Source: an uncultured Candidatus Peribacteria bacterium (GTDB lineage Bacteria > Patescibacteriota > Gracilibacteria > Peribacterales > Peribacteraceae). Taken from it: 64,000 bases of DNA. The stretch is taken from NCBI GenBank assembly GCA_964448405.1, contig CAYUVW010000001.1:17795-81794 (forward strand). Direction: 5' to 3'. The notes beneath the pieces were generated by a model, which made no database searches, was not told the origin of the DNA, and saw nothing but the letters and a program-made list of their open reading frames with translations. Below, one piece after another: positions 1,830 through 59,647 of this stretch. Numbering within the stretch: the first letter of the stretch is position 1; each line of letters starts with the position of its first letter. The translations under genes and the position numbers were made by a program.

Positions 1830-3227
1830 ATGGCCATTGATCCGCACATCTTTCGGGCATACGACATCCGCGGCAAGGCGTATACGCAACTGAATGCAGA
1901 AGCATGTTGGTGGATTGCCGCCGCATTCGGATCCATAGTTCGCGAGAACTATGCCAACGATACGAACACTCCCACCGTGGTCGTCGGGCACGATGCGCGA
2001 ACGCACAGCCCCGAATTTATGGAGGAAGTGGTTTCCGGCCTTATGGCTTCCGGTTGCAGTGTAAAGCGCATTGGCCAAACGCCGAGTCCGTTGAATTACT
2101 TTACGGTGTGCAACCGCGGTTTCGATGCGGGCATCCAGATTACGGCCAGTCACAACCCCAAAGAAGACAATGGACTGAAGCTGCACCTGCGGGGCGCCGA
2201 GGCGTATGCAGGCGAAGATTTGCAGCGACTGCGTGAACGCATTGAAGCGAAGAACACGCTTACCGGCACCGGCTCAGTGGAAGATATAGAAGCCGAAATG
2301 ACGTATCTCGAATACCTAGAGCAGTTGTTCCCGGCTGCAGGAGGTCGTCGCCACGTTATCGTCGATGGCGGCAACGGCGTCGCGGGTCCGACCTATGCGT
2401 TGGCGCTCAAGCGAATTAAAGCCAAGGTGACGGGCATGTATCTCAAGCCCGACGGCACGTTCCCAAATCATCCGGCGGATCCCAGTAAATATTCCACGCT
2501 GGTGGATTTGCAGCAGAAAGTCGTGGAGCTGAAAGCCGACTGCGGATTTGCATTCGACGGCGACGGCGACCGTCTGGGCGTGGTGGACGAGAAAGGCCAG
2601 ATCGTGACCGCCGACCAGCTCTTGCTCTTACTCGCGAAGGATCACCTCAGTCGCAATCCAGGAGCTCCGGTTATTTTCACAGTGAGCAATTCAGGGTTGC
2701 TGGAAAGCGAAATAACCAAGTGGGGTGGCAAGCCGGTCATGTGCAAAGTCGGCCATTCGTTCGTGGAACATGCCATGCGTGACCACAACGCCAAGTTGGG
2801 AGGTGAGCAGTCGGGTCACTTTTTCTGCGGCGAGGCATACTACGGCTTCGATGACGCGTTAGTGGCTGCCATGCGCGTGCTGAGCATTTTGAGTGCCAAC
2901 AAGAAGGCCAAGCTGTCCGAACTCATCGCGGAGTTTCCGAAAGTCTTCCAGGCACACGAGTTGCGTCCGCATTGTGACGATACCAAGAAAAAGGACGTGG
3001 TCGACCGCGTGTCGAAGTTCTTTGCAGCAAGTCACCCGGTGAATACGTTGGATGGCGCGAGAATTGATTTCGGTGACGGTGCTTGGGCGGGCGTGCGGTA
3101 CAGCAATACAAGTCCGTGCCTTTCGGTTTGCATTGAGGCCCGGAGCGAGGAGAAATTACAGGCGGTGGAGGCCGAGGTTCTGGGGCATTTGAGAACGTAC
3201 GAAGAGGTCCAGTTGGAGACGAAATAG
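1830..3227 (+). CDS. phosphomannomutase/phosphoglucomutase (alpha-D-phosphohexomutase)
   Basis: Active-site loop ITASHNPKEDNGLK, Mg site FDGDGDRLGVVD and sugar loop GGEQSGHFF. Start moved to ATG 1830 (MAIDPHIFRAYDIRG). Confidence 0.9.
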   Translation: MAIDPHIFRAYDIRGKAYTQLNAEACWWIAAAFGSIVRENYANDTNTPTVVVGHDARTHSPEFMEEVVSGLMASGCSVKRIGQTPSPLNYFTVCNRGFDAGIQITASHNPKEDNGLKLHLRGAEAYAGEDLQRLRERIEAKNTLTGTGSVEDIEAEMTYLEYLEQLFPAAGGRRHVIVDGGNGVAGPTYALALKRIKAKVTGMYLKPDGTFPNHPADPSKYSTLVDLQQKVVELKADCGFAFDGDGDRLGVVDEKGQIVTADQLLLLLAKDHLSRNPGAPVIFTVSNSGLLESEITKWGGKPVMCKVGHSFVEHAMRDHNAKLGGEQSGHFFCGEAYYGFDDALVAAMRVLSILSANKKAKLSELIAEFPKVFQAHELRPHCDDTKKKDVVDRVSKFFAASHPVNTLDGARIDFGDGAWAGVRYSNTSPCLSVCIEARSEEKLQAVEAEVLGHLRTYEEVQLETK

Positions 3228-3233
3228 CGGCAG

Positions 3234-3280
3234 GAGTCCAAGGATTTCAAAGAGTTCAAGGAGTCCAAGGAAGATTCCCT
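3234..3280 (+). repeat. intergenic array of ~9-nt units (GGAGTCCAA GGATTTCAAA GAGTTCAA GGAGTCCAA GGAAGATTCC); family 1, forward orientation
   Basis: Read directly. It starts 7 nt after the PMM stop. Its inverted partner lies at 3654-3698. Confidence 0.85.
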
Positions 3281-3296
3281 CATTTATTCTGAGGGT

Positions 3297-3653
3297 ATGC
3301 ATATTCGTCTTCATGAACGGCTTGTTGTCTGGCAAGAGGCATACAAATTGTGCCTATCGATATACCGGATGACTTCGGATTTTCCCTCCTACGAGAAATT
3401 TGGATTAACCAGTCAGCTTCGGCGTGCAGCTGCCAGCATCGCGCTCAATATCGCCGAGGGAAACGCAAAAAGAACCAAGGGTGATAAATGTAGATTTCTC
3501 GATATTGCGTTTGGATCACTGGAGGAGGTGCATTGTGCAACGCGCCTCAGTCGTGATTTGGAATACATTGATACGGCAAAGTTCGAGCAGGTCGATCGTC
3601 ATGTCCATAGGACAAGCTTTCTTTTGAATCGGCTCCGCAGAACCCTTGCATAA
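3297..3653 (+). CDS. four-helix-bundle protein (23S rRNA intervening-sequence protein family)
   Basis: LVVWQEAYKLCLSIY...FGLTSQLRRAAASIALNIAEGNAKRTKGDKCRFLDIAFGSLEEV matches the family pattern as I recall it. Confidence 0.85.
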   Translation: MHIRLHERLVVWQEAYKLCLSIYRMTSDFPSYEKFGLTSQLRRAAASIALNIAEGNAKRTKGDKCRFLDIAFGSLEEVHCATRLSRDLEYIDTAKFEQVDRHVHRTSFLLNRLRRTLA

Positions 3654-3698
3654 GATTCCTTGGACTCTTTGGAATCCTTGGTTTCTTTGGACTCCTAG
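3654..3698 (-). repeat. family-1 9-mer array, inverted orientation (the reverse complement reads GGAGTCCAAA GAAACCAA GGATTCCAAA GAGTCCAA GGAATC)
   Basis: Read directly. It begins 1 nt after the four-helix-bundle stop. Confidence 0.85.
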
Positions 3699-3727
3699 GC
3701 CACTATGTCCTCATCAGCAACCTACTC

Positions 3728-5365
3728 ATGACCTCCCCGCTCTCCCTCACCGGCCGCCAATGGGTCATGCGCCGCGATGCAGTACCCGATCTTATCGAAA
3801 CACTGGCGAAAGAAAGAGGTTTGGACGATGTGGTAACAGGGAAGCCATTAAAACTTTCCGACCCCCTCAAATTTCCCGAGGCCTCCAAAGCCGTCGAACG
3901 CATCGAGCACGCGATGAAATCCGGAGAAACCATCGGCATTTTCGGCGACTACGACGCCGATGGTATTACCGGCTGCGCCCAGCTCGTACGCTACTTTCGT
4001 CGTCACAATATCGAGCCTGTCGTGCATCTGCCGCACCGCGCCACCGAGGGGTACGGCATGAAAATCAGCAGCTTGAACGCATTGCATGCCAAAGGCGTGA
4101 GGGTGCTCATCACCGTGGACACCGGCATTGCCGCCACCGCCGAAATCGCGCACGCCAAGACACTCGGCATGGACGTCATCGTTACCGATCACCACGCCGC
4201 CCCCCAAGGCCGCCCCGACGCATACGCCGTGCTGCATCCGCTCATCCCAACGCCGTTTCCCAACCAGCATCTTTCAGGGTCCGGCGTAGCACTCATGCTG
4301 GTACGTGCGCTCGAACACGGCAAGCCGTGGCCGGGGATAGAACAAGACATTATCCTGGCCGCCATCGGCACTATCGGGGACCTGGTCCCGCTTACCGGTG
4401 AGAACCGCGGACTTGTCATTCACGCGCTGCGCCTGCTTTCTAAATTGCCAGATTCGCCGCTGAAAGATTTTGCCGATGCCGTGCGCGGCCAGAGCGCCCA
4501 GGCGCTTACCAGCACCGATATCGCATTCCGTATCGTGCCGCGCATTAATGCCAGCGGCCGTATCGATCATCCAATTGTGGCGCTGCAAGCATTGCTCGAC
4601 GGAGGAGACTCGCTCGAAAAATTGCATGCGCTGAATACCGAACGCCAGGGCATCACCGGCAAGATGGTCGAGCTGGCCGTGTCGCTGATCGACCCAACGC
4701 AGCCGTTTTTGTGTGTGGCCAACAGCGAGTTCCACTCCGGTGTCGTGGGCCTCATTTCCGGTGCGCTCACAGAACGCTATGGCCGTCCCAGCCTGGTGGC
4801 CGCCGTCACCGGCGACATCTGCACCGCGTCGCTACGCAGTATCCCCCAGGTGAACGTTGCGGCACTGCTGAATATGCCTGGCGTCCGCGACTTGCTTATC
4901 ACGTACGGCGGACACGCGCAGGCCGCCGGTTGCACGTTCAACATTGCCAACCTTGCCGCAGTGCAGACGGCGTTGAATACATGCATGCGCGAACAAGGTT
5001 TTACCGGCGATGCCATGCGACCGGTCCTGCACATCGACGCAACGCTGCCACTGACAAGCGTCACCATCCCGTTCACCGAATCCATTCAGCGACTGGAGCC
5101 ATTCGGCATGGGCAACGATCAGCCGGTTTTCCTATTGCAAGGCCAGTCCATTGAATGGGTTCGCACCGTCGGTGCCGATGGTAAGCACCTGCAATGCCGC
5201 GTGGGTGGCAAGAAAGCGGTGGGCTTTGGCCTGGGAGCGCATGCGCAGTCGCTCACCGACAAAGAGTGTTGGGACGTTGCGTGTACGCTCAGTATCAGCG
5301 ATTGGAACGATAAGCGCGAAGTGCAGCTCATGATGAAAGATATCCGGCCGCTGAAAAAGAGCTAA
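3728..5365 (+). CDS. recJ: single-stranded-DNA-specific exonuclease RecJ
   Basis: DHH-family motifs GIFGDYDADGITG and VIVTDHH, plus overall RecJ length and architecture. Confidence 0.9.
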   Translation: MTSPLSLTGRQWVMRRDAVPDLIETLAKERGLDDVVTGKPLKLSDPLKFPEASKAVERIEHAMKSGETIGIFGDYDADGITGCAQLVRYFRRHNIEPVVHLPHRATEGYGMKISSLNALHAKGVRVLITVDTGIAATAEIAHAKTLGMDVIVTDHHAAPQGRPDAYAVLHPLIPTPFPNQHLSGSGVALMLVRALEHGKPWPGIEQDIILAAIGTIGDLVPLTGENRGLVIHALRLLSKLPDSPLKDFADAVRGQSAQALTSTDIAFRIVPRINASGRIDHPIVALQALLDGGDSLEKLHALNTERQGITGKMVELAVSLIDPTQPFLCVANSEFHSGVVGLISGALTERYGRPSLVAAVTGDICTASLRSIPQVNVAALLNMPGVRDLLITYGGHAQAAGCTFNIANLAAVQTALNTCMREQGFTGDAMRPVLHIDATLPLTSVTIPFTESIQRLEPFGMGNDQPVFLLQGQSIEWVRTVGADGKHLQCRVGGKKAVGFGLGAHAQSLTDKECWDVACTLSISDWNDKREVQLMMKDIRPLKKS

Positions 5366-11767: not shown

Positions 11768-11824
11768 TTTGGCCTCCAGATAGGAGAATCCATTCTTTTG
11801 TGGTATACTGAGGGGTATATTCTT

Positions 11825-13444
11825 ATGTCCAAAAAAAACACACCAGAAACACCCAAAAGCGGACCGCGCCACTTTGGCGAAACACTGCCGGATTTGAAAG
11901 CGGAGCAAGGCAAGAAATTGCCGACCGGTTCCGCGAAGTTGATTGCCATCGAGGCCGCCAAGGAGATTGGAAAACTGGGGTATGACCTGGTGAAATCAGG
12001 CGGTTTACTGACACCGGTAAAGCTCGTGACGATGGCTTGGACTGCCTGGAAGGTCTACAGCACGGCCAAGGCCGAGGCGCTGCGCAAGCTGAATGAAACC
12101 TACCTCACCGGTCGTGACGTGTGGGCCCAGGACATCATGGGCAATGTGGAAGGCGGCGAGTTCAACGTCTCGGGAAACGAGCCTGTGAAGCAGGACATCC
12201 GCGATTACTTGCACGGTACTCCGCCTGCGCCCAGTTCACCGCTCCGTCTGCAGGTACGCACCCAGTATCGTAAGCAAAAAGAGTACGAGGCCGTCGTTGC
12301 ACATCTGGAGCAACTGGAACAAGGTGCAGCTGCCGTTGCCGAGTCTCTGGCAGCCAATCCGCCGGAGCAGTCCGATGTCGCCGCGCGAGCCGAGGAGCTG
12401 AAAGCATCGCTGACACAAGGCGAGCAGGCGTTGACGCGTGTGGCCGAAACAGCCGAAAGCACTGACTCGGCCTCGTCGGACCAGAACACCGGTGAAGACA
12501 AGCAGAAGGAGAATCGTGAAATGTTCCTTCGTCGAATCGCGGACCCCGACCGCAATCTGAGGGACAAGATGACCGAATTGCTGAGCTGGGTCGGTAACGA
12601 CTTCAAGGGATACGGTGTGAGGCTCCCCGGTGTTACACGTACGGCGAATGTGTCGCCGACCTACCGCGGTGACAGTACGCCGAGTAATACGTTTCACCAA
12701 TTCTCCCGTCTCGATGGCACCTTCGAGCGCAATGGAGTGCGCATTGTCTTGGACGGGGTGATTGTCGACCAGCATGGCAGTTGGTATCAAAGCGACAGTG
12801 TTCCCAGCAAAATCACCATAACGACGCCCGATGGGCAGCTTGTCGCCGAGCACCAGTTCGCCCCCGTCCGTATCTTGAAGCAAGGGCAGGAGGCGGTTAC
12901 GAGTGACCATCCGGCGATGCACCGGGAACTTTTGCAGGTGGCACAGGCCGTGGCGCAAGGCGAGCAGCCAGAGCGCCAGACCGACGCCGTCAAACGGCAC
13001 ACGGAAACATTGGAGCATGCACGGGATCGTATTGCAGAGCCGCTCGACCTCACGAAAATCCTCGCCAATCACGCGGCCGATGCGCGCCATACCGTTCCCG
13101 GACTATCTATCAAGACTGCCGAACGCCCTACCTCGATCGACGCCGAATATGCCGATACAAACGGCTATCGTCGGATCGACGGTACGGTCCGGGGTGCCGA
13201 CGGCGTCACCGTTGTCTTCGACGGAGTGATTGTCGATCATTTCGGCGATTGGATGGGCAATACCAAGACTCCCAGCAAGATCACGATTACGACCCCGGGT
13301 GGCGCACTGGAAATCCAGTGCTCGCACGGCCAAAAATATTTCATCGCGAACGAACGGTATTACGATTATCACAGGGACACACCAGAGGCGAACTACTCGG
13401 CGGGCATCATCTTCAAGGCGCTTGAGGCGATGCGTCCTGCGTAG
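11825..13444 (+). CDS. hypothetical protein with an internal ~50-aa duplication
   Basis: No motif recognised. The module R.DGT...GV.(I/V)V(L/F)DGVIVD..G.W......PSKITITTP.G occurs twice (~12700-12850 and ~13165-13315). Confidence 0.6.
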   Translation: MSKKNTPETPKSGPRHFGETLPDLKAEQGKKLPTGSAKLIAIEAAKEIGKLGYDLVKSGGLLTPVKLVTMAWTAWKVYSTAKAEALRKLNETYLTGRDVWAQDIMGNVEGGEFNVSGNEPVKQDIRDYLHGTPPAPSSPLRLQVRTQYRKQKEYEAVVAHLEQLEQGAAAVAESLAANPPEQSDVAARAEELKASLTQGEQALTRVAETAESTDSASSDQNTGEDKQKENREMFLRRIADPDRNLRDKMTELLSWVGNDFKGYGVRLPGVTRTANVSPTYRGDSTPSNTFHQFSRLDGTFERNGVRIVLDGVIVDQHGSWYQSDSVPSKITITTPDGQLVAEHQFAPVRILKQGQEAVTSDHPAMHRELLQVAQAVAQGEQPERQTDAVKRHTETLEHARDRIAEPLDLTKILANHAADARHTVPGLSIKTAERPTSIDAEYADTNGYRRIDGTVRGADGVTVVFDGVIVDHFGDWMGNTKTPSKITITTPGGALEIQCSHGQKYFIANERYYDYHRDTPEANYSAGIIFKALEAMRPA

Positions 13445-15589: not shown

Positions 15590-16543
15590 TTACGCCGACT
15601 GTTTCGCCATGCCGATCCGGTCGAAGAGCCACAACATCGCCATGAGCATGGCAATGCCAATGAGTCCGTGGAACAAATCCACCGCCACTTCGCGGGAGAA
15701 GATCCCGATGATCATAATCATCGCAATGCGAGCGCCGTTCAGGAAAAACAGCAACAGTGCACCAATGATTGCGGCAACCGCCGCGCGCCACGGCTGGACG
15801 CCGGACCGTTGCCACCACAGCGCTCCGGCCAGCAGGAGAAACAGCATGACGCCATCCAGTGCTGCGCACTGTGGCCCGATGCGCACGGTAAATGCATGGA
15901 ACGTAATCAGCGCATGGTGCGCATCCACCGACACAGCCGATGCATCGACGAGTTGCAGCAGCCAAGCCGCCAGATCCAGCGCCGGGCGAACCAATGGCAA
16001 ATGCCAGACCGACGCGAGAACCCCGGTTGTCACGAAGCCCAATGCCAGCAGTACACAGGCCAGAATCGCCGGGATGCAACGACGCAACGTCGCCCAAGGG
16101 AAGCAGAGTCCGTACGCGGCCGCAGCCGGCAGCAGGAGGCATGCGTATGACAGCGCGGTGAACAGCAGGCCGCGTGTTTGGTCGAGCGCCCTGAGTTGCA
16201 CCAATTGTTCGGTCGAAGGATGCGTGACCACCAGTGCAGCAACGGATGCAATCGCAACCAGCGCTCCGGATACGATGCGCTCGCGACGTGATGGCATTCC
16301 GATCTGCGCCATGCGTTTATCGTTTGCCAGCCACAATCCAAACAAGACTAACAACAATGCGAAATGATGTTGCTGCGGAGGCAGAGGCAAAAATCCCAGC
16401 GCGACAGGTCCGACGTATGCGCGCCCGATCAACGCGCTGAGCCCGGGGCTTTGCAGTAGAACCGGTATGCCAATGGCCACGGCAAAGAGCGTAACCGCTT
16501 TGCGGATCAGCGGAACCGATGGGTCCGCTGCGCGCGAGTGCAT
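15590..16543 (-). CDS. exosortase/archaeosortase-family membrane protein (putative)
   Basis: Polytopic hydrophobic protein. It has the ordered blocks RIGPQCAALDG (Cys), FFLNGARIAM (Asn/Arg) and DLFHGLIG (His), as in exosortase transpeptidases. Confidence 0.55.
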   Translation of the reverse strand: MHSRAADPSVPLIRKAVTLFAVAIGIPVLLQSPGLSALIGRAYVGPVALGFLPLPPQQHHFALLLVLFGLWLANDKRMAQIGMPSRRERIVSGALVAIASVAALVVTHPSTEQLVQLRALDQTRGLLFTALSYACLLLPAAAAYGLCFPWATLRRCIPAILACVLLALGFVTTGVLASVWHLPLVRPALDLAAWLLQLVDASAVSVDAHHALITFHAFTVRIGPQCAALDGVMLFLLLAGALWWQRSGVQPWRAAVAAIIGALLLFFLNGARIAMIMIIGIFSREVAVDLFHGLIGIAMLMAMLWLFDRIGMAKQSA

Positions 16544-16732
16544 TTAGAGGCGGTCGGAATCTTTGCTCTTTTTCTTTTGTAACAGCTTCTGCCCCGCCAC
16601 TGCGACTATGGGTACCGCCAGCCAACCGAAAAACGGCGCATCGGGCGGCGGCGGTGCCTCTATTGCAAACGCAACGGCGGGCATAAGCCAAGATACCGAG
16701 ATCACCAGCGATGCATGCACCAACCGTTTCAT
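16544..16732 (-). CDS. 62-aa secreted mini-protein with a PEP-CTERM-like sorting signal
   Basis: Signal peptide MKRLVHASLVISVSWLMPAVAFA, then IEAPPPPDAP, then helix FFGWLAVPIVAVAG, then QKLLQKKKSK. Its TAA directly abuts the exosortase ATG. A GGTGA motif lies 6 nt upstream of its ATG. Confidence 0.45.
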   Translation of the reverse strand: MKRLVHASLVISVSWLMPAVAFAIEAPPPPDAPFFGWLAVPIVAVAGQKLLQKKKSKDSDRL

Positions 16733-16882
16733 TGGTCGTCACCTTACCATGAAGGCTTTGAACGGACCAAAAATTTCTCAGCGATGTTTTTGCACTACTC
16801 CCAAGTGAGCCGACCTTGGCGCATCTATTTTTTCCCCATGACACTATACTGGTGGCATGGGTCGGTCTGGTACCGTAGCGCT

Positions 16883-17824
16883 ATGGAGCACGCATGGAAT
16901 CCGTCGCAGATGAACGTGCCGTGGACCGAGTCGCCGTTCTTCAGTGATCTATTGGCGGCATCGGAATTGAGCGGAGATCACCGCGATGTTGCCGAGCGTT
17001 TTTCGCGCGACGGCTATGTGGTGCTTACGCCGAACGACACGGCGTTCCCCTCGTTTGTCGAAGCCCTGCGTGCCAGTCCACCTGCGTTCGAGGCCGACCG
17101 TGGTACAGACTTGTGGCGTACCGATGAGCGCGTAAAACGACTCGCTATCCACCCGGAAATTCTGACGACGCTCGCCATGTTGTATCGGCGCGAGCCGATT
17201 GCATTCCAGACGCTCAATTTCGCGCACGGCACCGAGCAGTGCACACACAGCGACGCGGTGCATTTTCATTCCTACCCGCAACGGTTTTTGTGCGGCGTGT
17301 GGACGGCGCTGGAAGATATCGACGATAACAACGGCCCATTGCACGTCTACCCGGGGAGTCATCGGCTGCCCTTGTACGATATGCACGATTTTGGCCTGCC
17401 GTCCTCGCGCGATTGCTATCCGGACTACGAGGAAGCTATCGGCCAATTGGCTGCCAAGCTTGGCCTGCAAAAACACGTCGTGACCGTGAAGGCCGGGCAG
17501 ATCGTAGTGTGGGCCGCCAACTTGCTGCACGGCGGGGACGTGATTCGCGATCGTTCACGAACGCGCATGAGCCAGGTGACGCACTATGTCTTTAAGGACT
17601 GTCTTTACTACGTCCCCATTCTTTCCGACCCGTTCGCCGGTTCGGTTCGACTGCGCAATATCACCGATATTTCCACCGGACTGTCTGTACCGCATGTCTA
17701 CAGAGGCAAGCTACTCAAGGTGTCGCCTGAGCAGGAGTTTTGGCAGCGGCCGTCGTTCGGGAAGTTCCTCCTCGCGGTGCTCGGTCGTTGCCGCGTGGGA
17801 GTCGCGAAGTTTCTGAAGCGTTAA
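16883..17824 (+). CDS. PhyH-family Fe(II)/2-oxoglutarate dioxygenase
   Basis: H-x-D in CTHSDAVHFHS, a distal His in NLLHGG, and overall PhyH-like size. The start is uncertain (16838 or 16883). Confidence 0.6.
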   Translation: MEHAWNPSQMNVPWTESPFFSDLLAASELSGDHRDVAERFSRDGYVVLTPNDTAFPSFVEALRASPPAFEADRGTDLWRTDERVKRLAIHPEILTTLAMLYRREPIAFQTLNFAHGTEQCTHSDAVHFHSYPQRFLCGVWTALEDIDDNNGPLHVYPGSHRLPLYDMHDFGLPSSRDCYPDYEEAIGQLAAKLGLQKHVVTVKAGQIVVWAANLLHGGDVIRDRSRTRMSQVTHYVFKDCLYYVPILSDPFAGSVRLRNITDISTGLSVPHVYRGKLLKVSPEQEFWQRPSFGKFLLAVLGRCRVGVAKFLKR

Positions 17825-17867: not shown

Positions 17868-19172
17868 ATGATCGACCTCGCAGATTTCCGCAAGCGCCCC
17901 GAAGCCTACCGCGATGCCGCCAAGAAGAAGCGTGTCAATATCGACATCGACGCCTTCCTGAAGCTGGACGAAGAGCGCCGCGCATTATTGCATGCGGTGG
18001 AAACCAAGCGCGCCGAGAAGAACAAAGTCAGCGCCGAGGTGCCGAAGATGAAAGGTGATGAAAAAGCCAAGGCCGTGGCCGCCATGAAGGAACTGGGCGC
18101 CGAGCTGAAAGCCAGCGAAGAGCGCCTGAAAGAAGTGGAGGTACTCTGGAACGATCAGCAGCTGCGCTTGCCCGGCATTCCGTTGCCGCAGGTTCCGGAA
18201 GGCAAAGACGACACCGAGAATAAGGAGATCCGGAAGTGGGGTGAGTTGCCGAAGTTTGCGTTCGAGCCAAAAGACCACGTCACGCTCGGTGCCGATTTAG
18301 ACATTGTCGATATCCCGCGCGGTGTGAAGGTGGCCGGCAGCCGCAGCTACATTCTGAAAGGCGATGGCGCCCGTCTCGAACTGGCCATCCATTTGTTCGC
18401 ACTCGACTTGCTGTACAAGAAAGGCTTCACTCAGCTCAATCCGCCGGTGCTGGCCAGCTACGACGCCATGATGGGCACCAGTTACTTTCCGGGCGGCGAA
18501 GAGCAGGCGTACGCGGTCGGTGTTCAACAGAAGCGTGCCGAGCCCATTGTCCCAGATGATCTCTACCTCATCGGCACCGCGGAAGTTCCGGTGACCAGTT
18601 ACCACAGCGGCGAGGTATTGAAGCTTTCGGAATTACCCAAGCGCTACGTTGGTTTCTCCAGCGGGTTCCGGCGCGAGGCCGGTACCTACGGCAAGGACAC
18701 CAAGGGTCTGTACCGCGTGCATCAGATTCAGAAAGTCGAACAAGTCATCCTGTGTGAAGGCGATGCCGCAGTCAGCGCGAAGATGCATGCCGAAATTCTC
18801 GCCAATGCCGAAGCAGTCATGCAGGCGCTCAAGCTGCCGTACCGCGTGGTGGATGTCTGCACCGGCGACATGGGCCTGGGTCAGGTCTACAAGAACGATA
18901 TCGAGACCTGGATGCCCAGCCGCAACGGCTACGGCGAAACGCACAGTTGTTCTACTTTCCACGACTTCCAGTCGCGCCGTTTGAACATCAAATACGAGGC
19001 TGCCGACGGCACCAAGAAGTTCGTTCACACCCTTAACAACACTTGCATCGCCACGCCGCGCGTACTTATTCCCATCCTCGAACTCTACCAGAACGCCGAC
19101 GGCTCCGTGACCGTTCCAGAGGTGTTGCGTCCGTACATGGGCGGCCAGGAGAAAATCGCGCGTAAGGGCTAG
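17868..19172 (+). CDS. serS: seryl-tRNA synthetase
   Basis: N-terminal coiled coil plus class II core ([21 protein letters not shown]-type, [11 protein letters not shown]). Start at ATG 17868. Confidence 0.95.
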   Translation: [434 protein letters not shown]

Positions 19173-20389
19173 TCGACCTTCCGCCGCACGTAGTGCCACT
19201 TGCTCACGACGGGCACCGGCATCTCCGTCGCCTGCGACCCGTCGCCGGTGGTGTCGGTCGGTTCTTCGCATGCGCCGTGCTTGCGACAACGCTCCCAGAC
19301 CAGCGCGAAATCCACACCCTTCTTTTCTTGCTCGGTCATGCGCCGGCGCCAGCGCATCACGCGTTTGTCCAAATTCAGCGTGCGTGCCAGCGCGTTCATG
19401 GTTCGCACATAGTTCAAGCCGTTCAGTGTATCGATCACGTCCGCCCGTTCGTTGCCGCCGCTCCGTTCCGATGACAGCCGTATGAGTGCATCCGGCAGAC
19501 GACCGAGGCAGCGCGGAGTCGGGTGGAGGGCATCCAGCAACACCGGCGTGCACTGCTCGCGTCCGTGCACGTTTTTGCGCGTCAGCAGCACGTTGTCTCC
19601 TTCGCCGAGAATATCGATGATTTCATCCGTTTCATCGCTGTACGCAATCGCCCGTTCAATGAAGGTCCGCATCGTCGCGCGCAAGCCGCCGTCGCGCCGC
19701 AGGGCGTTCATCAGGCTCGCAAGCGGCTTCGATTGCTGTGTCTGCAGAAATTCGTCGCGCCCCACCGGGATGTCGTTTTCATCGCCGCAGTCCAGCACGA
19801 GGTGCGTATTGACCCTGGCGTACCGCTGGACGTGGGGGTGCGTGCGCGGCAGAAGTGGCAGTCCGCTGGCATGGGTAGCGGGCTGGCACAACGTGCCGAT
19901 CTCCCGCTGGCTCCAGTCCGTGCGCAGTTCGGCGTATCCGCACGACAGGCGTTGTGCACCTTCCAGCTTCACGGGTTGCTGCACGATGATCAATCGCTGC
20001 CTGCCGTCCGGACTGGCATGCAGCATGGCGTGTTCGTTGGGCATCCAATGCGCATCGCGCATGTACTCGCGCAGCAGTCGCATGCGTGCGCGATGGTCAT
20101 GCAGCGCTTCGTCGGATGCCTCATGCAGTCCGACCTTCAGCACGAACGGCAAATCGTACGGCATGCCTTCCAAAGGAAGGCGCATGCCCGACAGCACGAC
20201 GTTTTCGCCGCCGTGTCCCACCGGGTGAAACAACATGGGTTGCTTTCCGCTCGCGACCGAAACGCGGTCCATCATCCCGGTACGGATCTGCCGAATCAGA
20301 TCATCCAGAAATGCCCGGTGCAAACCGGCGTGTTCCGCCTGTTCTTGCTGCACATCGGGTTGCTCCGTTGGATCAAGCGTTTCCGCCAT
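19169..20389 (-). CDS. hypothetical protein (406 aa), orphan
   Basis: Long ORF with ordinary composition and no signal peptide. No convincing motif. Confidence 0.6.
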   Translation of the reverse strand: MAETLDPTEQPDVQQEQAEHAGLHRAFLDDLIRQIRTGMMDRVSVASGKQPMLFHPVGHGGENVVLSGMRLPLEGMPYDLPFVLKVGLHEASDEALHDHRARMRLLREYMRDAHWMPNEHAMLHASPDGRQRLIIVQQPVKLEGAQRLSCGYAELRTDWSQREIGTLCQPATHASGLPLLPRTHPHVQRYARVNTHLVLDCGDENDIPVGRDEFLQTQQSKPLASLMNALRRDGGLRATMRTFIERAIAYSDETDEIIDILGEGDNVLLTRKNVHGREQCTPVLLDALHPTPRCLGRLPDALIRLSSERSGGNERADVIDTLNGLNYVRTMNALARTLNLDKRVMRWRRRMTEQEKKGVDFALVWERCRKHGACEEPTDTTGDGSQATEMPVPVVSKWHYVRRKVD

Positions 20390-57340: not shown

Positions 57341-59647
57341 TTACTCTCGTCGGAGCTCCACGTACTGCATTTTCAGGCTGCCGATATGCACCTGGAAGTT
57401 GTCTTTTGCGGACGCGCGGATGCGGATCAAGAAGTCTTGTCCCGGAGTCCATGTTCCACCGCTGCCGATGTCGATACCGCTGGTGGTCCAGCTGGTATTC
57501 GCAAGGTTGGAAACAGAGCCGGACAAGGTGACCGGTACGCCGTTGGTATCGTAGACTTGAATGTCCACTTTGTTCGCGGCATTGCTGGCATTGGTCGTGC
57601 GGTAATCCAGGCTCAGCGGATTTTCGGCACCACCCGCCTTCCAGCGGACGAAGTTCGGCGACAGATGTGCCTTCAACAAGATGTCGTAGTCCTGCAGCAC
57701 TGGGCGCGTGCTCGACCAATCATAGAAGTTTATCTTTGTTGTATTGTCGTGACTGACCTGCAACTGACCGATGTTATCGGTACCGTCGCCCTGGTAGCTG
57801 GCATGTTCGAACTCCGGATTGAAGACGGTTTGCACCGTGGTTTCACGGTCGTCACTATTCAGGATGCGACGATCGGTGATGGTCAGCACGTTCGAGCCGT
57901 TGGTCGTTACTTCGGCAACCGGAATGTACGACTCGTCGGTCGGGTAGCCGAGCGTAGTCACAGTCAGTCCTCCGGAGCCGAAGAACACGTAGCTGGAGGT
58001 GCTGGCGGGAACAGCCACGCCGCTGGCGCCTGCATAGTTGGTGACGACTCCATTCAAGCGGTAGCTTCCACCGGAAACCATAATCGTCAGTCCGGCACCG
58101 GCGTATGCTTTCAGTGCGCCGGTGGAACTCTGCAGCGAACCCAGGTTGACGCCGTTCACCAGACCGGTGACGGTCAAGTCTCCTTGAATGCGCACATCGT
58201 CATTGAAGTTGAACCAGCCGTTCACGCTGTCGTAGCTCAGTTGCTTGGACAGCGCGTTACCGAATTGCAGCACGACTTCGGTGGCGGCGCTGTCGTCGTT
58301 GTTCAGTACGAAGGTGTTTGCATTCGTGCCGCCGGGGATGGTGCTCTTGGGCAGCAAGCCGCTCAGGTCCAACACCGGAATATTGAAGCTGCCGGTTCCA
58401 GTGTCGTGCTGGTCGAGCAACTCGGCGTTGTTTGCAAACGGTACGGTGGTCACGCGCGAGCGATCCAACGCAGTATCGCTCGGGTTGGTGTCCAGCAACT
58501 CATACGAGGTATCCGGATCGCCGGCCATCTTCACCTCTACTTGCAGGTGGAGGTTCTTCAGGGTGTCCACCGGCAGCGTGCTGAAGTCGATGAGCGGCGT
58601 GACTTTGCCGAGTTCAACCGAGAAGTAACCCTGTGCGGTCGGCGTGACGGTTTGTACTTCGTTCCAGCTGACATAGTTGGTGGCACTCGTATTGATTGCG
58701 CCGCCGCCCGTAAGATCCGAAGTCACGAAGTCGGAGCTCTTCCAGTAGCTGAAGCGAATGGTGACCGCCGTCGTAATAGGTGTGCCGCTGGCGTTCAAGA
58801 GGTTGCCCTTATAGGTGCTCAAGAGCGGAGTGGTCGTGTTGGCGGCGTGTGCGGTGAACGGCATGCCGAGGAGCAGCAGTCCCAGCGCAAGCGAGAACAG
58901 TGCCAGCAACACGCTCATGGCAACCGTGCGATTGCGCTTCTTTTTCAAGAACGTGCGGATGCGCTTGTGCAGCACGTACGTCATGGCGCTGCTGCCGGCA
59001 ATCGCAATGCAGAACAGTGAGATCCACATCCAGACCCATGTGGCGGTTTCCGTTGCTGCACCGTGCAGCGTTTCTGCAGGAGGACAGAGCGGATCAACCG
59101 CACCGAAGTACCGCAGATTCAGTGCCGTACCGTCGATCGACGACGTATCGTATGTCGTTTCCGTCCATGCCGAGCTCGACAGATCGGTCGTTGTTTCTTC
59201 GGCCGATGCGCTGCTTGCCGAACTTGCAATCGGATACGTCTGCGGTACACGCGGGCCACGAGAACTCGTGCTGCTCGAATGCGTGCTTGCACTTGCACTG
59301 CTTGCCGCAGGATGCGGTCGGGAACCGCCGCCGCTCGTACCGGCATTACCTCCGGTGCTTCCGCCGCCGGTCGTGCCACCCGCGCCGGTCGACGAACTGC
59401 TGCTTGTGCCGGCAGTCGTTGCGGGTCCGGTCGTCAGGATGAAGTTGTTTCCAGTGAGGACCGAATCGTTCCACGTCACGCCGTTGTTCATGTGCTGGAA
59501 CGACGTGCTTACGCCCGGATCTCCGGTAGCGTTGTCGCCCATGCTTTCTTGCAGCTGGAACGACGTGCTCACCTGAGCCATGGCGACCGGTGCGCTCAGA
59601 GTGAGCGCCAGGAGTGCCAAGCCGATGCTGGTGACGAAGCGTCGCAT
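57341..59647 (-). CDS. surface protein D: signal peptide, Ser/Thr/Gly-rich domain, internal TM hairpin, fibre module, shared C-terminal domain
   Basis: See finding at 58844-59038. The C-terminal ~170 aa parallel those of protein C (..GGTWTP(G/K)..). Confidence 0.7.
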   Translation of the reverse strand: MRRFVTSIGLALLALTLSAPVAMAQVSTSFQLQESMGDNATGDPGVSTSFQHMNNGVTWNDSVLTGNNFILTTGPATTAGTSSSSSTGAGGTTGGGSTGGNAGTSGGGSRPHPAASSASASTHSSSTSSRGPRVPQTYPIASSASSASAEETTTDLSSSAWTETTYDTSSIDGTALNLRYFGAVDPLCPPAETLHGAATETATWVWMWISLFCIAIAGSSAMTYVLHKRIRTFLKKKRNRTVAMSVLLALFSLALGLLLLGMPFTAHAANTTTPLLSTYKGNLLNASGTPITTAVTIRFSYWKSSDFVTSDLTGGGAINTSATNYVSWNEVQTVTPTAQGYFSVELGKVTPLIDFSTLPVDTLKNLHLQVEVKMAGDPDTSYELLDTNPSDTALDRSRVTTVPFANNAELLDQHDTGTGSFNIPVLDLSGLLPKSTIPGGTNANTFVLNNDDSAATEVVLQFGNALSKQLSYDSVNGWFNFNDDVRIQGDLTVTGLVNGVNLGSLQSSTGALKAYAGAGLTIMVSGGSYRLNGVVTNYAGASGVAVPASTSSYVFFGSGGLTVTTLGYPTDESYIPVAEVTTNGSNVLTITDRRILNSDDRETTVQTVFNPEFEHASYQGDGTDNIGQLQVSHDNTTKINFYDWSSTRPVLQDYDILLKAHLSPNFVRWKAGGAENPLSLDYRTTNASNAANKVDIQVYDTNGVPVTLSGSVSNLANTSWTTSGIDIGSGGTWTPGQDFLIRIRASAKDNFQVHIGSLKMQYVELRRE

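Follow-up and report, generated by a model that had tools for sequence, protein, structure and literature searches.

A candidate dedicated exosortase system with a passenger-less mini-target in Candidatus Peribacteria

Introduction

Can an exosortase be dedicated to a target that carries essentially no passenger protein? The question is raised by a locus in a 64,000-nucleotide stretch of DNA, called the window below, from an uncultured Candidatus Peribacteria bacterium (contig CAYUVW010000001.1, positions 17,795 to 81,794 of the forward strand). A 62-aa open reading frame (ORF), here called the mini-ORF, lies directly upstream of a gene for a predicted exosortase-family enzyme, and a gene for a PhyH-family dioxygenase lies beside the pair on the opposite strand. 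A sequence-only reading of the window had described this layout and had proposed the 62-aa product as an exosortase substrate, possibly one that is hydroxylated by the neighbouring dioxygenase. The observation is confirmed by the present analysis, and the interpretation is partly supported.

Exosortases are widespread, yet to our knowledge it is not known what their substrates become attached to. A dedicated exosortase system, XrtE/VPEID-CTERM (TIGR04162 with TIGR04161 / PF27847), was reportedly described by Haft et al. in 2012, and it is the system to which the locus is most often compared below. We consider it likely that the mini-ORF and the enzyme gene form a two-gene, translationally coupled, dedicated exosortase system with a mini-target in Candidatus Peribacteria, which belong to the candidate phyla radiation (CPR). 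This judgement includes the cleavage mechanism proposed below.

The exosortase-family enzyme

The enzyme gene (15590..16543, minus strand) encodes a polytopic membrane protein of 317 aa. It was assigned to the exosortase family of Cys proteases/transpeptidases by PF09721, TIGR04178, an hhalign comparison with XrtE, and an AlphaFold2 (AF2) model. Scores against the profile hidden Markov models (HMMs) were 34.1 bits for PF09721 (curated cut-off 25.7) and 40.9 bits for TIGR04178, the exosortase/archaeosortase signature (cut-off 23). None of the named Xrt/Art subfamily models was reached by the enzyme (XrtR, 21.7 vs. 150; XrtX, 20.7 vs. 170).

The sequence contains the motifs RIGPQC226AALDG, FFLN269GAR272IAM, and DLFH292GLIG, and these Cys, Asn/Arg, and His blocks are as first described. 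On the minus strand, the codon of Cys226, the predicted catalytic nucleophile of the GPQC motif, lies at 15866..15868. The codons of Asn269-Gly-Ala-Arg272 (N-x-x-R block) lie at 15728..15739 and that of His292 (FHG block) at 15668..15670. An alignment of 49 sequences covered both tiers of relatives described below, at 22-28% identity to the window enzyme, and its sole invariant columns were C226, N269, R272, and H292. In both BLASTP and hhalign comparisons, these residues sit opposite the invariant C237, N281, R284, and H304 of XrtE. The hhalign match to the exosortase half of XrtE reached 99.4% probability (E = 1e-21) over 234 columns. For the superfamily as a whole, a Cys/Arg/His triad is described and transpeptidation is suspected (10.1101/2023.06.07.544157).

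The profile scores and catalytic columns place the predicted enzyme firmly in the exosortase/archaeosortase superfamily, with the Cys/Asn-Arg/His signature intact. The exosortase identity given by the sequence-only reading thus withstood the profile-HMM check: PF09721 and TIGR04178 were above their cut-offs, and the Cys, Asn/Arg, and His residues fell in the catalytic columns.

The enzyme is rare. Among 5.8 billion proteins, 7 close homologues were found by a word-indexed search and 9 by a profile search. When 1.84 billion cluster representatives were searched exhaustively with an HMM, one representative of this tight clade was recovered, at 500 bits. Below that clade, scores fell steeply to about 110 bits, where a second tier of full-length relatives of about 320 aa appeared, followed by XrtE proteins of about 550 aa. 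By genome titles, the tight clade belongs to Candidatus Peribacteria, and one second-tier member comes from a Candidatus Peribacteraceae metagenome-assembled genome (MAG).

The AF2 model, built from the 49-sequence alignment, had a predicted local distance difference test (pLDDT) score of 88.1 and a predicted template modelling (pTM) score of 0.81. Its approximately eight transmembrane (TM) helices agree with the hydropathy and charge pattern in embedding the enzyme deeply in the membrane, and a small β-sheet is placed immediately ahead of Cys226. Loops rich in K/R were located at residues 75-85, 148-155, and 243-253. From the modelled helices and these loops, both termini are predicted to be cytoplasmic, with Cys226, Arg272, and His292 near the outer leaflet. 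A second exosortase was not found in the window. Taken together, the enzyme appears to define an XrtE-like exosortase subfamily for which no model exists and in which the CPBP domain of XrtE is absent.

The mini-ORF and its conservation

The mini-ORF (16544..16732, minus strand) is the gene of a 62-aa mini-precursor, the putative dedicated target of the exosortase. Its stop codon TAA (16546-16544) abuts the start codon ATG of the enzyme gene (16543-16541), giving TAAATG, and the junction is as originally described. A Shine-Dalgarno-like sequence, AAGGTGA (16739..16745, minus strand), is located 6 nt before the mini-ORF ATG. No comparable Shine-Dalgarno sequence precedes the enzyme gene, and this would fit translational coupling to the mini-ORF. 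Rfam and PADLOC scans of the region matched nothing.

The mini-ORF reads MKRLVHASLVISVSWLMPAVAFA, IEAPPPPDAP, FFGWLAVPIVAVAG, and QKLLQKKKSKDSDRL in this order, and all of its parts are on the minus strand. Residues 1-23 (16664..16732) form a predicted Sec signal peptide, which was judged by inspection. Lys/Arg residues in the n-region are followed by a hydrophobic core and by a signal peptidase I site with Pro at -6, Ala at -3, and Ala at -1. The sole 'passenger' is the Pro-rich 10-residue spacer IEAPPPPDAP (16634..16663). The putative C-terminal tripartite sorting signal (16547..16645) consists of P-D-A-P-F-F-G-W, a TM helix (LAVPIVAVAG…LL), and a Lys cluster (QKKKSK) with a tail. The TM stretch after the motif is about 14-18 residues long and is followed by the K/R-rich positions 52-55 and by 0-10 residues to the stop codon.

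Across related genomes, the mini-ORF was found directly upstream of the enzyme in 9/9 loci, with its stop codon abutting or overlapping the enzyme start codon. The loci considered were those with upstream sequence (L001, L002-4, L005-7, L008, L009, L014, L015, and L016). Two tandem copies were present in three lineages (L001, L002, and L008). An identical 62-aa protein had been called by the Joint Genome Institute (JGI) on five contigs (P0165). The 12 distinct copies share a consensus that reads MKxxL…AAWLVPxAAFA up to the signal peptidase site and IxAPPLPDxPFFGWLAVPVVGVAGHKLLKKKR after it.

Selection on the mini-ORF was evident from dN/dS values of mostly 0.12-0.33, with dS saturated or >1. 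In the DNA alignment, changes within the mini-ORF fell at third positions, and indel-rich divergence was seen in the intergenic sequence just upstream. The signal peptidase site was present in 12/12 mini-ORFs, with P18 (-6) and A23 (-1) invariant and Ala, Thr, or Gly at -3. The spacer was 10 residues long in 11/12 copies; P27 and P33 were invariant and P28 and D31 nearly so. The motif residues D31, P33, F35, and W37 were invariant or nearly so. Mean pairwise identity was highest in the FFGW and TM segment (77%), followed by the spacer (56%), the basic cluster (50%), the signal peptide (42%), and the tail (18%).

These data show that the mini-ORF is a real gene under purifying selection, which always adjoins the enzyme gene and is sometimes duplicated. 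The earlier claims on this gene are therefore upheld, both for its conservation and dN/dS in related genomes and for a tripartite signal without a passenger, in which the signal peptide, the spacer, and the motif/TM/Lys tail are conserved in 12 copies.

The end of the signal peptide (W-L-x-P-x-A-A-F-A) also bears a loose resemblance to the beginning of the second helix (W-L-A-V-P-V-V-A-V-A), which belongs to the FFGW and TM segment at 16592-16633.

The mini-protein as the probable target of the enzyme

Criteria for the tripartite sorting signals of dedicated systems are given in section 5 of 10.1101/2023.06.07.544157. The mini-protein has a C-terminal site, at least three near-invariant motif residues, a TM stretch, a basic cluster, and a signal peptide. 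This supports the view that its sequence is in all respects that of a cognate tripartite target, with next to no passenger.

Other proteins with the same signal were not recovered. The back-translated core PFFGWLA[VI]P occurred in 4 Peribacteria genomes among 185,579 species genomes, at this locus only. A profile of the mature mini-protein retrieved only 7 clusters of 55-67 aa from 5.8 billion proteins at E ≤ 10, one of which was identical to the window mini-ORF. Within the window, a hydropathy-based scan for proteins with such a tail matched the mini-ORF alone. Two further motif matches were rejected as chance, one in a non-coding frame (L012) and one in an internal TM segment of an unrelated protein (L013).

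The second-tier exosortases adjoin or overlap genes of ordinary secreted proteins of 307-895 aa, which have a related P-D…W motif, TM helix, and basic tail. One locus (L018) has two tandem proteins of 333 and 307 aa that end in …AAPDLSTW-ALLLLLPACVYVL-ERKG. At another (L020), the tail is …SDIPWW-TIFAGITIALPLCYLV-KKKK and the gene abuts that of the enzyme. A 444-aa protein (L021) ends in …NIPVFPPW-SLVLLVPGGWLML-RRLKK, and its gene overlaps the enzyme start. The longest example is an 895-aa FG-GAP protein (L017) with the tail …EVPDIRGW-FLLLIGCTSALYFW-R.

Because passenger proteins with a related tail occupy the same slot in these relatives, the mini-ORF can be read as a substrate gene that has lost its passenger. 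It appears to have kept both the slot of the ancestral substrate and its type of signal. The second-tier tails are the strongest positive evidence that the mini-ORF encodes a substrate. Passenger loss would either converge on the XrtE/VPEID-CTERM design or be shared with it. From this evolutionary series, in which sister Peribacteria have substrates of 300-900 aa at the corresponding position, mini-targets seem to originate when the passenger is lost and strong selection continues to act on the signal.

Some features of the second-tier substrates were observed in passing. The two L018 substrates (2618-3619 and 3661-4584, from the Peribacteraceae MAG) are tandem paralogues with a PT-HINT/intein-like region. 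A '…DHIRMTVTYT' module stands at the C-terminus just before the sorting tail in both L018 substrates and in those of L020 and L021.

Proposed mechanism and its main alternative

In the mechanism that we propose, the precursor would be exported by the Sec pathway, and signal peptidase I would cleave it after AFA to leave a 39-residue single-pass peptide in the N-out/C-in orientation. The exosortase would recognise the motif at the outer end of the helix and cleave between P-D-x-P and FFGW through Cys226, at the outer leaflet. The resulting Pro-rich peptide of 8-10 residues (IxAPPxPD…) could be passed through a thioacyl intermediate to an amine-bearing acceptor in the envelope, such as a lipid head group or glycan. 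This transfer step is suggested by analogy with ArtA and rhombosortase, and the peptide might instead simply be released. The TM helix and the basic tail would be discarded.

A further reading goes beyond cleavage, and we advance it only tentatively, as possible rather than probable. An exosortase system may have been converted from protein anchoring to peptide maturation. Its product would be a length-fixed [I/V]-x-x-P-P-x-P-D… peptide of 8-10 residues, which would either become a surface lipo- or glycopeptide by transfer to a scavenged lipid or cell-wall glycan, or be cyclised when its own N-terminus resolves the thioacyl intermediate. The XrtE mini-targets, which are uncharacterised, would then be read in the same way.

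Several results weigh against the proposed mechanism. The FFGW and TM segment, which would be discarded, is 77% conserved vs. 56% for the supposed product, a pattern that would fit tight one-to-one recognition and a stable partnership between helix and enzyme equally well. Neither a PDB sequence search nor Foldseek retrieved a solved homologue of the enzyme or a similar fold. AF2 modelling of the mini-ORF and the enzyme fused into one sequence was unusable (pLDDT 51, pTM 0.31). The literature searched describes no cleavage, acceptor, or product of the window system or of any XrtE-type system. The Peribacteria genomes were read only as fragments, and larger substrates with a more divergent tail may exist.

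Because the helix that would be discarded is the best-conserved part, a model in which it is a stable partner or pseudo-substrate stays alive. The mini-protein would then be a small membrane partner of the enzyme, whether subunit, pseudo-substrate, decoy, or primer, that is held in the substrate groove and regulates or primes the enzyme, and the true substrates would be encoded elsewhere with a divergent tail. Translational coupling through TAAATG or ATGA suggests stoichiometric production, as a partner would have, and substrates with divergent tails may lie in parts of the Peribacteria genomes beyond those read. However, no other candidate substrate was found in the 64-kb window, in the 4 species genomes with the exact motif, or among 5.8 billion proteins with the profile. 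A signal peptidase site and a P-D motif at the helix boundary are needed by a cleaved target, not by a subunit. Furthermore, the slot that the mini-ORF occupies holds genes of bona fide passenger substrates in the relatives. We therefore regard a stable partner as rather unlikely and prefer the reading of the mini-protein as a dedicated, cleaved target.

The neighbouring PhyH dioxygenase

The divergent neighbour of the cassette (16883..17824, plus strand) encodes a PhyH-family Fe(II)/2-oxoglutarate dioxygenase. It scored 60.4 bits against PF05721 (cut-off 22). The HxD…H triad is intact, with H122, D124, and H216 invariant in 6 orthologues. Identity among orthologues is 66-90%. The longest possible ORF starts at 16715, 168 nt further upstream (16715-16882, plus strand), and would overlap the mini-ORF at its 5' end. 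In every homologue, the initiator is the Met that corresponds to 16883 (MEHAWNPSQM). With this start, the divergent spacer is 150 bp, and the distance reported by the sequence-only reading holds. Because of the potential overlap, gene callers may mis-start PhyH or suppress the mini-ORF.

The position of this gene raises a second alternative, a pathway like those of ribosomally synthesised and post-translationally modified peptides (RiPPs). PhyH would hydroxylate Pro/Asp of the decapeptide, the exosortase would serve as maturation protease or cyclase, and a modified peptide would be secreted or anchored. PhyH divergently adjoins the cassette in 9/9 tight-clade loci with its iron triad intact, and the tandem mini-ORF copies resemble the precursor multiplicity of RiPP clusters. 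A hydroxylase-type neighbour is also present at two XrtE loci. One has a JmjC/Cupin_8 oxygenase that adjoins the XrtE system (L023, 5679-6599, minus strand), and the other (P0010) has an FA_hydroxylase together with an AMP-binding enzyme and a γ-glutamyltranspeptidase. These two cases may be coincidence or subgroup-specific tailoring.

However, the adjacency itself carries no specific information. In the tight clade, the cassette lies in a syntenic block of at least 10 genes: NTP-transferase, hypothetical, UvrB, exosortase, mini-ORF, PhyH, SerRS, hypothetical, GT4, and SpoIID/amidase. Since all of them lie in one block, the adjacency of PhyH is no more telling than that of SerRS or UvrB. PhyH was not found at the second-tier loci examined or at the Salipiger and Rhodobacter XrtE loci. 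A metagenome scan for PhyH orthologues recovered a single 2-kb contig, on which a homologue of 40% identity sits beside a methyltransferase with no exosortase on the contig. The nearest solved relatives, EctD, PhyH, PHYHD1, and SnoN, act on small molecules. PhyH also lacks a signal peptide, yet the core would be exposed only after export.

A RiPP-like pathway is thus improbable. PhyH is most likely an unrelated syntenic neighbour, and a functional link with the cassette is unsupported, contrary to what had been suggested for it. Of the conserved trio that had been expected, the adjacency of peptide, protease, and PhyH in the tight clade stands; PhyH takes part in it only as a member of the larger block and is absent from the second tier. 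The idea that a hydroxylase is a recurring neighbour of dedicated exosortases was likewise rejected, given its presence at two XrtE loci and its absence from the Salipiger and Rhodobacter loci.

The unlikely alternative of a functionless remnant

A third alternative takes the mini-ORF to be a functionless substrate remnant that is kept as an upstream coupling ORF, or else an unrelated holin- or toxin-like peptide. The abutting or overlapping stop and start codons, the lack of an obvious Shine-Dalgarno sequence for the enzyme, and a layout that resembles a truncated second-tier substrate would fit a remnant. However, amino-acid conservation is maintained across lineages whose enzymes are only 45-57% identical. 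The dN/dS of 0.12-0.33 and the invariant motif residues largely refute a remnant, and tandem duplicates are kept in three lineages, in which the distal copies cannot act as coupling ORFs. This alternative as a whole is therefore very improbable. A holin or toxin is rejected by the strict coupling to the enzyme and by the conserved signal peptidase and motif residues. The cleaved, dedicated target remains the preferred reading of the mini-protein.

Other ORFs in the window

An element similar to the sorting signal had been reported at 58.9-59.0 kb of the window. This claim did not hold: the element is an internal TM segment followed by KKKRNR in a 768-aa ORF, has no P-D-x-P-F-F-G-W core, and is not C-terminal. 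The ORF (57341-59647, minus strand) has no Pfam match and begins with a signal peptide, followed by an S/T/G-rich region of about 190 aa. The internal TM segment WVWMWISLFCIAIAGSSAMTYVL is followed by HKRIRTFLKKKRNR, by a second signal-peptide-like stretch, MSVLLALFSLALGLLLLGMPFTAHA before ANTT, and by a domain of about 520 aa. The product could be a surface protein with two TM helices or an internally processed protein.

Two further ORFs were noted. The 548-aa ORF at 11798-13444 (plus strand) has no Pfam match and contains two internal repeats (…VRIVLDGVIVDQHGSWYQSDSVPSKITITTPDGQL… and …VTVVFDGVIVDHFGDWMGNTKTPSKITITTPGGAL…). The ORFs in the equivalent position in the relatives are unannotated hypotheticals of variable length. 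The 406-aa ORF at 19169-20389 (minus strand), which has no Pfam or PADLOC match, is flanked by SerRS and GT4 at every related Peribacteria locus.

Comparison with known systems

The AgrB/AgrD pair of Staphylococcus has a comparable layout. A polytopic membrane Cys endopeptidase is encoded beside a precursor of about 46 aa with a core of 8-9 residues. The N-terminal membrane-targeting leader of AgrD is cut by signal peptidase, and the C-terminal recognition tail is removed via a thioacyl-enzyme intermediate. The likeness to the window system is an analogy only, without homology. Unlike the mini-protein, AgrD has no TM sorting helix, and the window core has no Cys for a thiolactone. No histidine kinase or response regulator was found near the window cassette.

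The PEP-CTERM systems of XrtA and XrtB (TIGR02595) share with the window system the superfamily, the N-terminal signal peptides, and a Pro/acidic motif followed by a TM helix and a basic tail. They differ in that one enzyme serves dozens of unrelated passengers in an exopolysaccharide-linked, diderm context, whereas the window enzyme has 1-2 adjacent, passenger-less targets. The PEP-CTERM models gave no match to the window system.

ArtA of Haloferax volcanii, which acts on PGF-CTERM proteins, provides the superfamily's only experimentally grounded mechanistic model (PMC9263693). Its Cys173, Arg214, and Arg253 are critical, and removal of the C-terminal TM helix is coupled to lipid attachment (PMC9263693). 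The window enzyme resembles it as a polytopic protein in which Cys and Arg would be critical. ArtA is an archaeal enzyme of another subfamily, with large S-layer and other glycoproteins as substrates. The artC and artE models gave only weak matches, to relatives of the window enzyme.

The closest named family is XrtE/VPEID-CTERM. In both systems, one enzyme is paired with an adjacent tiny target gene directly upstream, present in the window system as 1-2 mini-ORFs in 9/9 loci. The targets share a signal peptide, a short spacer, an acidic Pro motif, a TM helix, and a basic cluster, and the enzymes share a homologous exosortase domain with identical catalytic columns. At the XrtE loci, the dedicated targets are 43-86 aa long with spacers of 11-30 residues. 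The sequence-only reading had assumed that every known exosortase substrate has a real passenger, and this premise is thus not correct.

The XrtE targets are illustrated by the following loci. A JGI locus has a 43-aa upstream gene annotated as PF27847 VPEID-CTERM. At L023, the upstream ORF of about 86 aa comprises a signal peptide, 17 residues, APEIDP, a TM helix, and ERYRKRK. On a plasmid of Rhodobacter sp. CZR27, a 64-aa protein ahead of the annotated xrtE comprises a signal peptide, TDGCIALGTCS, VPEIS, a TM helix, and ERRRR. An unannotated ORF of about 86 aa was also noticed directly upstream of the annotated xrtE on the Salipiger sp. CCB-MM3 plasmid NZ_CP014598.1 (L025, ~4170-4430). Its signal peptide is followed by a spacer of about 30 aa that contains Cys, by SVSVPEIGGQG, a TM helix, and RRREV. 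The ORF appears to be a VPEID-CTERM target that was overlooked in annotation.

Several features differ from those of XrtE. The window enzyme, at 317 aa, ends after the His helix and lacks the C-terminal CPBP/Rce1-like half; the hhalign match spans only columns 74-322 of the 548 columns of XrtE, and no homologue of the CPBP half was found anywhere in the window. TIGR04162 gave no match to the window enzyme at E ≤ 1, and second-tier relatives scored 26-47 bits (cut-off 150). TIGR04161 / PF27847 gave no match at E ≤ 10 to 4-6 Peribacteria mini-ORFs, whereas the Rhodobacter XrtE target, used as a control, scored 29.7 bits on TIGR04161. XrtE targets have V-P-E-I-D as their motif and an Arg-rich basic cluster, and their hosts are alphaproteobacteria; the window system, in a CPR bacterium, has P-D-x-P-F-F-G-W and a Lys-rich cluster. 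Because the model score, CPBP domain, and motif tests all failed, the window system is set apart from XrtE/VPEID-CTERM. A literature search retrieved nothing relevant on exosortases in Peribacteria and no experimental work on XrtE-type systems.

An exosortase with a mini-target is therefore not unprecedented as a design. What appears to be new is the stand-alone exosortase domain, the P-D-x-P-F-F-G-W signal, the Lys-rich tail, and the CPR host. The design would now extend beyond XrtE and the Proteobacteria to a CPR bacterium that lives by scavenging and has a minimal envelope, and to an enzyme without a fused CPBP protease. P-D-x-P-F-F-G-W-CTERM would be a new sorting signal, on proteins that annotation pipelines call 'hypothetical' or miss.

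Passenger-less targets may offer the simplest handle on exosortase chemistry, with a product that would be a peptide-acceptor adduct of about 1 kDa. If the peptide-maturation reading is true, the small size of the acyl donor, only about 1 kDa, would allow the acceptor of an exosortase to be read directly by mass spectrometry. Together with XrtE, the window system could thus provide a tractable route to the exosortase acceptor.

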